In this document: piece after piece, positions 3,037 to 5,487 of the stretch
Numbering within the stretch: the first letter of the stretch is position 1
How the letters are laid out: the number at the start of each line of letters is the position of its first letter
From: a virus
Lineage: Duplodnaviria > Heunggongvirae > Uroviricota > Caudoviricetes
DNA: 5,487 nt
Strand: one strand, 5' to 3'
IMG/VR virus record: IMGVR_UViG_2526164630_000029
Location: 1 to 5,487 of that record
The notes under the pieces: generated by a model
Told to the model about the DNA's origin: nothing
What the model saw: the letters and a program-made list of their open reading frames with translations, nothing else
The model's database searches: none
Program-made: the position numbers and the translations under genes

Positions 3037-5487
3037 ATGGGCAAAGGTGGCGGCAGGGCGCACACGCCTCGAGAGGCGAAGGATAATCTCAAATCCACGC
3101 AGATGATGAGTGTGATTGATGCGATTGGTGAAGGGCCGATTGAAGGTCCGGTGAAGGGGCTGCAGAGTATCCTGGTGAACAAAACCCCGCTGATGGACAC
3201 GGACGGTAATCCCGTGATACACGGTGTGACTGCGGTCTGGCGTGCCGGGGAGCAGGAGCAGACACCACCGGAAGGCTTTGAGTCCTCCGGAGCTGAAACC
3301 GGACTGGGCGTGGAAGTGACGAAGGCAAAGCCGGTGACGCGCACCATTACGTCCGCGAACATTGACCGCCTGCGGGTTACCTTCGGGGTGCAGTCACTGG
3401 TGGAGACCACCTCAAAGGGTGACCGTAACCCGACGTCTGTCCGCCTGCTGATTCAGCTTGAGCGTGGTGGTAAATGGATGACGGAAAAGGATGTCACCAT
3501 TAACGGCAAGACCACCTCGCAGTTCCTGGCGTCGGTGATTCTGGATAATCTGCCGCCCCGGCCCTTTAACATCCGGATGGTCAGGGAGACGGCGGACAGC
3601 ACCACGGACCAGCTGCAGAATAAGACGCTGTGGTCGTCATACACCGAAATCATCGATGTGAAACAGTGCTACCCGAACACGGCCATTGTGGGGCTGCAGG
3701 TGGATGCGGAGCAGTTTGGCGGTCAGCAGATGACGGTGAACTACCATATCCGCGGTCGCATCATCCAGGTACCGTCAAACTATGACCCGGAAAAACGCAC
3801 GTACAGCGGCATCTGGGACGGCAGCCTGAAACCGGCATACAGCAACAACCCGGCCTGGTGCCTGTGGGACATGCTGACTCACCCGCGCTACGGCATGGGA
3901 AAACGTCTGGGGGCGGCAGACGTGGACAAATGGGCGCTGTATGCCATCGGGCAGTACTGCGACCAGACGGTCCCGGATGGTTTCGGGGGCACAGAGCCGC
4001 GGATGACCTTTAATGCGTACCTGTCACAACAGCGTAAGGCGTGGGACGTTCTCAGTGATTTCTGCTCGGCGATGCGCTGTATGCCGGTATGGAACGGCCA
4101 GACGCTGACGTTCGTTCAGGACCGCCCGTCGGATGTGGTGTGGCCGTACACCAACTGCGATGTGGTGGTGGATGATAACGGCGTGGGGTTCCGCTACAGC
4201 TTCAGCGCCCTGAAGGACCGCCACACGGCGGTGGAGGTGAATTACACCGACCCGCAGAACGGCTGGCAGACCTCCACGGAACTGGTGGAAGACCCGGAAG
4301 CCATACTGCGCTACGGGCGCAACCTGCTGAAGATGGATGCGTTCGGTTGCACCAGTCGCGGTCAGGCCCACCGTGCCGGGCTGTGGGTGATAAAGACCGG
4401 ACTGCTGGAAACGCAGACGGTGGATTTCACGCTCGGGTCACAGGGGCTGCGTCACACACCCGGTGACATTATTGAAATCTGTGATAACGACTATGCCGGG
4501 ACCCTGACCGGCGGACGTATCCTGTCCATCGATGCCGCCAGCCGCACCCTGACACTGGACCGTGAGGTGACGCTTCCGCAGACAGGTGCCGCCACGGTGA
4601 ACCTGATTAACGGCAGCGGTAAGCCGGTGAGCGTGGCCATCACTGCACACCCCGCGCCGGACCGGATACAGGTCAGCACCCTGCCTGATGGTGTGGAGAC
4701 ATACGGTGTATGGGGACTCTCCCTGCAGTCACTGCGTCGTCGCCTGTTCCGCTGTGTCTCCATCCGGGAAAACACGGACGGCACCTTTGCCATCACGGCG
4801 GTGCAGCACGTACCGGAAAAGGAAGCCATCGTGGATAACGGGGCCAGCTTTGAGCCGCAGTCAGGCACCCTGAACAGCGTCATCCCACCGGCAGTGCAGC
4901 ACCTGACGGTGGAGGTGAGCGCAGCTGACGGTCAGTATCTGGCACAGGCGAAATGGGACACGCCGCGGGTGGTGAAGGGCGTGCGCTTCAGTTTGCGCCT
5001 GACCAGTGGAAGCGGTCAGGACAGCCGTCTGGTGACCACCGCTATCACTGCAGACACGGAGCACCGTTTCAGTGGCCTGCCGCTCGGGGAATACACCCTG
5101 ACGGTCAGGGCGATTAACAGCTATGGCCAGCAGGGCGAACCGGCCACCACCGCGTTCCGGATTAACGCGCCTGCAGCACCCGCCAGCATTGAGCTGACGC
5201 CGGGGTATTTTCAGATAACGGCGGTCCCGCGTCTTGCGGTGTATGACCCGACGGTACAGTTTGAATTCTGGTTTTCGAGGCAAAAATCGCAGACACCGCA
5301 CAGGTGGAAACCTCTGCCCGTTATCTGGGGACCGGCAGTCAGTGGAGTGTATCCGGCCCGCACATTAAGCCCGGGAAGGATTTCTGGTTTTACGTGCGCA
5401 GCGTCAACCTGGTGGGGAAATCTGCGTTTGTGGAAGTCAGCGGGCAGCCCAGCAATGATGGTGAAGGGTATCTGGATTTTTTCCGGG
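3037..5487 (+). CDS. J: Central tail fibre / host specificity protein J (lambda gpJ-like), 3'-partial (runs off the window), with an apparent 1-nt deletion near 5276-5279
   Basis: ATG at 3037 with a GAGAGG RBS. One continuous frame 3037-~5277 gives [39 protein letters not shown]...[15 protein letters not shown]...[46 protein letters not shown]...[29 protein letters not shown]...[17 protein letters not shown]...[26 protein letters not shown], lambda-J-like throughout. After ~5277 the conserved sequence ([19 protein letters not shown]...[39 protein letters not shown]) is in the frame one base back. It is absent from the ORF track only because no stop falls inside the window. Confidence 0.92.

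Follow-up and report, generated by a model that had tools for sequence, protein, structure and literature searches.

A one-base frame break in the host-specificity gene J of an Escherichia coli DEC11C prophage contig, probably an error of the draft consensus

Is the host-specificity gene J of a lambdoid prophage in Escherichia coli DEC11C broken in the bacterium, or only in the sequence that was deposited for it? The question is raised by a stretch of 5,487 nucleotides (IMG/VR record IMGVR_UViG_2526164630_000029, positions 1 to 5,487; hereafter "the window", meaning this stretch at its full length), in which J, coding for the tip attachment or host-specificity protein of the tail, leaves its reading frame about two thirds of the way through the length found in intact relatives. 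The window is the entire 5,487-bp contig AIGX01000086.1 of the draft assembly GCA_000250155.2. According to a published strain table, the whole-genome shotgun prefix AIGX belongs to E. coli DEC11C, which is O45:H2, stx1a-positive and eae-epsilon1 (PMC4959244). DEC11C is an E. coli that produces Shiga toxin (STEC), and the window is the tail-tip module M-L-K-I-sodC-J of a lambdoid prophage.

The frame break in J

The gene starts at position 3037 on the plus strand, and its first 747 codons (3037–5277) were placed in frame 1 by tblastn, by Pfam matches and by alignment to the sequence of the lambda J structure PDB 8iyk_J. A tblastn search with lambda gpJ, the check suggested by a first-pass annotation made from the letters of the window, gave frame 1 and then frame 3, as that annotation had predicted. 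The frame-1 match runs from residue 1, the reported piece (residues 1–782, positions 3037–5376, 72% identity, E value 0) overrunning the break, and residues 750–819 match frame 3 at 5277–5486 (63% identity, E value 2e-23). The gpJ of UTAK-4, taken from a finished genome, gives the same picture at much higher identity, with residues 1–750 in frame 1 (98.5%, E value 0) and residues 748–817 in frame 3 (98.6%, E value 6e-40). Past the break, frame 1 encodes unrelated sequence, and the conserved J goes on in frame 3, that is in the -1 frame, with the rest of the second immunoglobulin-like (Ig-like) domain (5277–5486, plus strand). The break is thereby placed at codon 747/748, inside this domain, close to the 750 codons first estimated.

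The sequence of the window at 5277 is TTTTCGAGGC, as compared with TTTTCGGAGGC in intact relatives. When aligned at the DNA level with two intact J genes, the window lacks exactly one G, at 5277/5278 (TTTTC-GAGGC), so that CGA stands at 5276–5278 on the plus strand in place of the CGGA of the intact relatives compared; the first-pass annotation had named the same base, expecting TCGGAGG for the TCGAGG observed. Once this G is put back, the fragment of 817 residues can be aligned over its whole length with residues 1–819 of lambda J (PDB 8iyk_J, 9e7m). The Ig_J_second profile (PF24489) is complete only once the frame is corrected, being matched over positions 2–104 of 105 with 141 bits, as compared with positions 2–40 and 47 bits in the uncorrected frame.

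The uncorrected frame was also said to stay open to the end of the window, and it does: no stop interrupts frame 1 from 2983 to the window end, and in frame 3 none follows the one at 5262. The presence of a J frame break in the deposited sequence is far beyond chance, which enters only in the 70 codons over which the wrong frame happens to remain open. When the wrong frame is continued into the downstream DNA of a relative, a stop is met two codons beyond the window end, giving a product of 819 residues instead of 1,158. The deletion itself lies 210 bases from the end of the contig. An antisense open reading frame (ORF) of 146 codons (4861–5301, minus strand) spans the break site, but no Pfam profile matches it; being probably spurious, it was not retained as a gene.

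The identification of the gene as J, also proposed in the first-pass annotation, was borne out by the lambda gpJ search, by the Pfam domains and by the alignment to the sequence of the lambda J structures. The gene belongs to the lambda gpJ family according to its hub, both Ig-like domains, its alignment and its position in the module. The hub domains FNIII-A_GpJ (PF24801) and Phage-tail_3 (PF13550) are found on the called product, and the 8iyk_J alignment starts at residue 1. Both Ig-like domains are present (Ig_J with 68 bits, and Ig_J_second, which is truncated as deposited), and J follows M, L, K and I according to the called genes, the Pfam matches and the annotated relatives. The contig ends at J residue 817; PF09327 and PF12421 are found further on in intact relatives. 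The shifted 819-residue product would be without the Phage_Tail_Tip and Ig_GpJ_C domains of these relatives.

We then looked at how often this deletion occurs elsewhere. In the set of finished E. coli genomes, 735 cover an 81-base query centred on the break, and none was found to match it exactly over its full length. The top-ranked places in finished genomes span 82 bases with 98.8% identity, the gap being the only difference. The deletion is absent from the finished genomes examined, including those of O45:H2 FWSEC0003 and O103:H2 12009. The single-G pattern had no match in IMG/VR, in the Joint Genome Institute (JGI) metagenomes or among the GTDB representatives, and the GG pattern occurs in 104 IMG/VR contigs. 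J homologues following the uncorrected frame after the break, which according to the first-pass annotation would speak against it, were not found among the places searched: the top-listed places and the copies aligned base by base use the corrected frame.

A search of the out-of-frame tail against a collection of 5.8 billion proteins, whose clustering at 90% hides long J proteins, the window's own included, gave three matches (P0001–P0003). P0001 is a mis-framed partial call on intact sequence, its SGFRRQKS corresponding to TCT GGT TTT CGG AGG and so on; P0002 is a short fragment; and P0003, from another genome, has its frameshift elsewhere, about 130 bases past the site. The latter (WY12_00025) is a hypothetical protein of 88 residues encoded on an E. 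coli contig of 4.83 Mb, a J fragment which enters the same wrong frame near the stretch GTGGGGAAATCT and ends alike in ...FSGKK*. Two other irregularities of J were seen in the course of these searches. In phage JLK-2012 (NC_049942.1), which comes from DEC5E of the same DEC collection, J is annotated as two coding sequences (4138–6939 and 6988–7611). In IMGVR_UViG_2693429523_000005 and three further IMG/VR contigs, a 26-base J motif occurs two to three times within a few kilobases, for example at 3748, 5272 and 7646 in one 10.3-kb contig, which suggests tandem or mis-assembled J segments.

One-base indels in L, K and I

When the window was aligned with intact relatives, both pairwise and in multiple alignments, six further one-base indels came to light, all upstream of J and on its strand. 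The gene for minor tail protein L (164–871) loses its frame at 752/3, where CC has become C, and contains an extra A at 860 (AAA to AAAA), in the region of its native stop; as deposited, the Pfam Phage_tail_L profile is matched only over positions 1–175 of 206. K (868–1608), coding for the JAB/NlpC-P60 tail-tip protein, is split into four frame segments by the loss of one G from a run of six at 1156/7 and of one C from CC at both 1318/9 and 1542/3, and each of its out-of-frame segments still encodes conserved protein. The tail assembly gene I (1605–2185) loses its frame at 2124/5, where GGACAT reads GGCAT; this is the one site that is not in a run. Together with the one in J, six of the seven indels are deletions, and six of the seven lie in runs of identical bases (two to six bases long), for which the chance probability of at least six in seven is about 0.03. 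An apparent indel at window position 6 was rejected as an alignment artefact of a divergent reference, since the third prophage of FWSEC0003 matches positions 1–495 without a gap.

The finished genome of FWSEC0003, which is of the same serotype, served as the comparison set, with its prophage copies A (at 2.01 Mb), B (3.38 Mb) and C (1.73 Mb), and a difference was considered contig-specific when found in none of the three. None of the seven indels is present in these copies or in UTAK-4. Once all seven are reversed, L, K, I and the J fragment are free of internal stops and their products are 98.8–99.6% identical to those of intact relatives: 231 of 233 residues for L, 247 of 248 for K (compared with copy A), 193 of 194 for I (compared with copy B) and 807 of 817 for the J fragment.

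A look-up of exact products found the frameshifted L (235 residues) and the product of the I region (225 residues) on this contig only. The latter is a called product (1668–2345, plus strand) that covers most of I and is without a Pfam match at E ≤ 0.01; in some relatives PF06805 (Lambda_tail_I) is recorded for the product of I. The 108-residue K product, a JAB-domain fragment resulting from the shortening of the six-G run (1151–1157), occurs on 24 other contigs, of which 9 exceed 1 Mb in length, and the deletion was present in all five of the loci that were read. Either a homopolymer error that recurs or a hotspot of mutation may lie behind this. Some of the contigs with this product carry other G-run deletions in L. 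With the exception of the K deletion, which recurs in other assemblies, the indels are absent from the relatives compared.

The proportion of indels to substitutions differs between the two parts of the window. Positions 1–2250 contain six contig-specific indels and three contig-specific substitutions, and the J part contains one indel and 11–13 substitutions. According to E. coli mutation-accumulation data, about one small indel arises for every ten substitutions. At an indel share of about 10%, at least six indels among nine events would be expected with a probability of about 6e-5, and at a share of 20% with a probability of 0.003. No nonsense codons, larger deletions or insertion sequence (IS) elements accompany the indels in the window.

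Error, mutation or recoding

From the missing base, its six companions and the restoration of four genes when they are reversed, we infer a technical cause: the break is likely an error of the draft consensus, present in the deposited sequence and not in the bacterium. This reading is favoured because seven frameshifts come with almost no other change, which is unlike decay. The rarity of the J deletion and its closeness to the contig end also speak for it. In genomes of this lineage the tail-tip module is present in several near-identical copies (in finished relatives, up to 11 places match the L-K-I part and three match the 81-mer around the break). At seven places, most of them short stretches of a repeated base, the consensus of the contig would have lost or gained one nucleotide, and one such loss would have taken the G from TCGGAGG in the second Ig-like domain of J. 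The real J would be intact and would go on in another contig to its fibre and receptor-binding part. The signs of a consensus error that can be tested are all seen here, with several one-base indels in conserved coding sequence (seven, in L, K, I and J) and their position in runs of identical bases (six of the seven). Those of inherited pseudogene decay are not: the indels in positions 1–2250 outnumber contig-specific substitutions two to one instead of standing alongside other neutral damage, with no internal stops once they are reversed, and the lesion is not shared by the close relatives among the finished genomes examined.

Several observations nevertheless weigh against a technical cause. 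The J part alone, with its single indel among 11–13 substitutions, is what natural mutation would also yield, and because of this the verdict on 5277 depends on the six companions. The first 2,250 bases hold six of the seven indels (P about 0.02), which a uniform error rate would not predict, and a loss of G from GG is not an error of the long-homopolymer kind. The shortened G run in K, seen in 24 other contigs, is maybe a real recurrent mutation, and frameshifted tail genes are common in defective STEC prophages.

It is therefore necessary to consider that the deletion could be a genuine, strain-specific mutation in a defective DEC11C prophage, which we regard as rather unlikely. The J product, about 819 residues long, would then contain the hub, the first Ig-like domain and one third of the second, followed by 72 residues read out of frame; neither the central fibre nor the C-terminus that binds the receptor would be made. 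Such a prophage, with L, K and I crippled as well, would be unable to build an infective tail tip, and sodC would be the cargo for which it persists. The G is indeed absent from the deposited sequence, the shifted frame would stop soon after the window end, sodC is intact where L, K, I and J are all broken, and the ratio of indels to substitutions in J taken by itself looks natural. The recurrence of the K deletion, including in contigs longer than 1 Mb, and the fact that defective lambdoid prophages are common in STEC point the same way. A mutational origin does not, however, account well for six contig-specific indels against three substitutions within 2.25 kb (P of about 6e-5 to 3e-3). Decay so advanced in frameshifts should have brought other damage, and neither nonsense codons nor larger deletions nor IS elements are present; reversing single bases is enough to bring four genes back to near identity with their relatives, and the lesions are shared by none of the finished genomes of the same lineage that were examined.

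The gap could also be real and be bypassed, either by a -1 slip of tRNA-Lys on C-AAA-AAT (5281–5287) or by some other recoding, but this is very improbable. Such a bypass would yield a low level of full-length J with two residues changed (EA to RQ) alongside mostly truncated J, and would amount to an accidental, leaky suppression of the frameshift of a tail-tip gene. The frame-1 codons CAA AAA TCG would in principle allow it, as the AAA tRNA shifted by -1 would pair again with AAA and enter the conserved frame at ATC. None of the hallmarks of a programmed -1 frameshift (slippery heptamer, conservation and downstream structure) is found at the site, though. The zero frame, TGG TTT TCG AGG CAA AAA TCG, holds a single AAA preceded by A and no heptamer of the form X XXY YYZ, and the 90 bases at 5286–5375 fold at -27 kcal/mol, as compared with a mean of -29.7 kcal/mol for shuffled sequences (z = +0.79). 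The run of five A's is not selected for slippage, because intact A-type and B-type relatives have it too, and five A's are too few for transcriptional slippage. The shift occurs in no other sequence among finished E. coli genomes, IMG/VR, JGI metagenomes and GTDB representatives, and the six frameshifts in L, K and I would need separate bypasses.

An error in the draft consensus thus remains the reading that we prefer, and it bears on the consequence drawn in the first-pass annotation, namely that the receptor-binding C-terminal part of J would not be made in frame. This probably does not apply to the living strain, because the break is one of seven one-base indels in genes that are otherwise undamaged, on a small draft contig.

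The tail-tip module and its known counterparts

The gene map was drawn from the called genes and the Pfam matches on their products. The window opens with the 3' end of the gene for minor tail protein M (1–164, plus strand; called gene, PF05939), followed by L, K and I as described above. Between I and J, and on the minus strand, lies sodC (2376–2903; called gene, PF00080), an intact cargo gene coding for a Cu/Zn superoxide dismutase. It is the sole complete gene of the contig that is free of indels, and its translation is identical to the sodC product of UTAK-4. A 344-residue ORF on the minus strand (2376–3410) is sodC stretched upstream to the first possible start codon. In annotated relatives the order is tape measure, M, L, K (annotated as a C40 peptidase), I, sodC, gpJ (1,158 residues), Lom and tail fibre.

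Over the whole window, DNA identity is 96–97% to the sodC-carrying prophages of O45:H2 and O103:H2 STEC genomes, and 93–95% to Shiga toxin-converting phages. The window is also a mosaic of the alleles carried by the FWSEC0003 copies, with C-type sequence in the first 490 or so bases, A-type from there to about 1700 and B-type up to about 3834, beyond which it is mostly A-type with B-type patches. Bases 1–495 are 99.8% identical, without gaps, to the third prophage of FWSEC0003, and the switch from C-type to A-type falls within about 250 bases that are identical across all three copies. The finished UTAK-4 shows similar blocks, B-type then A-type, with the same switch near 3834–3891, and in the window too the alleles change block by block. 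Because of this, resident lambdoid prophages have probably recombined naturally to give the mosaic, and we do not claim that the contig is a chimeric consensus of collapsed repeats.

Compared with lambda gpJ (8IYK, 9E7M), the J of the window has the same architecture: the G-restored residues 1–817 align with 1–819 from end to end, the Pfam domains come in the order FNIII-A_GpJ, Phage-tail_3, Ig_J and Ig_J_second, and the genes in the order M-L-K-I-J. It differs from it in sequence (about 72% amino acid identity), in being one G short in the second Ig-like domain, in the opposite-strand sodC between I and J, and in that the C-terminal fibre and receptor-binding part of J lies beyond the contig. 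Among the closest counterparts, too, are the gpJ proteins of the O45:H2 and O103:H2 STEC sodC prophages (for example WP_347938519.1 from UTAK-4; WP_032362343.1 from FWSEC0003 and 2011C-4251), which share with the window the 96–97% of DNA identity already mentioned, the 807 of 817 corrected J residues and sodC, and which show the Lom and tail-fibre genes downstream. They are annotated with an intact J of 1,158 residues and intact L, K and I, where the window has seven one-base indels, and the 5' end of the window (1–490) is of the third prophage type.

As regards the lesions themselves, the window resembles what one-base errors of draft or uncorrected assemblies look like, with six of seven indels being deletions, six of seven being in runs, conserved genes being broken and the contig being a small one from a repeat region. 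It departs from them in that most of the runs involved have a length of only two bases, and in that one site lies outside any run. It also resembles the pool of defective prophages of enterohaemorrhagic E. coli (EHEC), in which the same kind of element in the same host has its tail genes interrupted and its cargo sodC kept. Natural decay normally adds substitutions, stops, larger deletions and IS insertions, however, and none of this was seen here.

Frame breaks of this kind escape ORF finders where the wrong frame stays open to the end of the contig. They cluster in small repeat-region contigs of older drafts, and should be taken as quality flags, not as biology, until confirmed by reads. The break in J is most likely no real biological feature, and if real it would be an ordinary lesion of a defective prophage. 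In that case, the sodC prophage of this O45:H2 STEC would be unable to make the receptor-binding part of its tail tip, and would join the other defective prophages, a condition that is common and has been well described.

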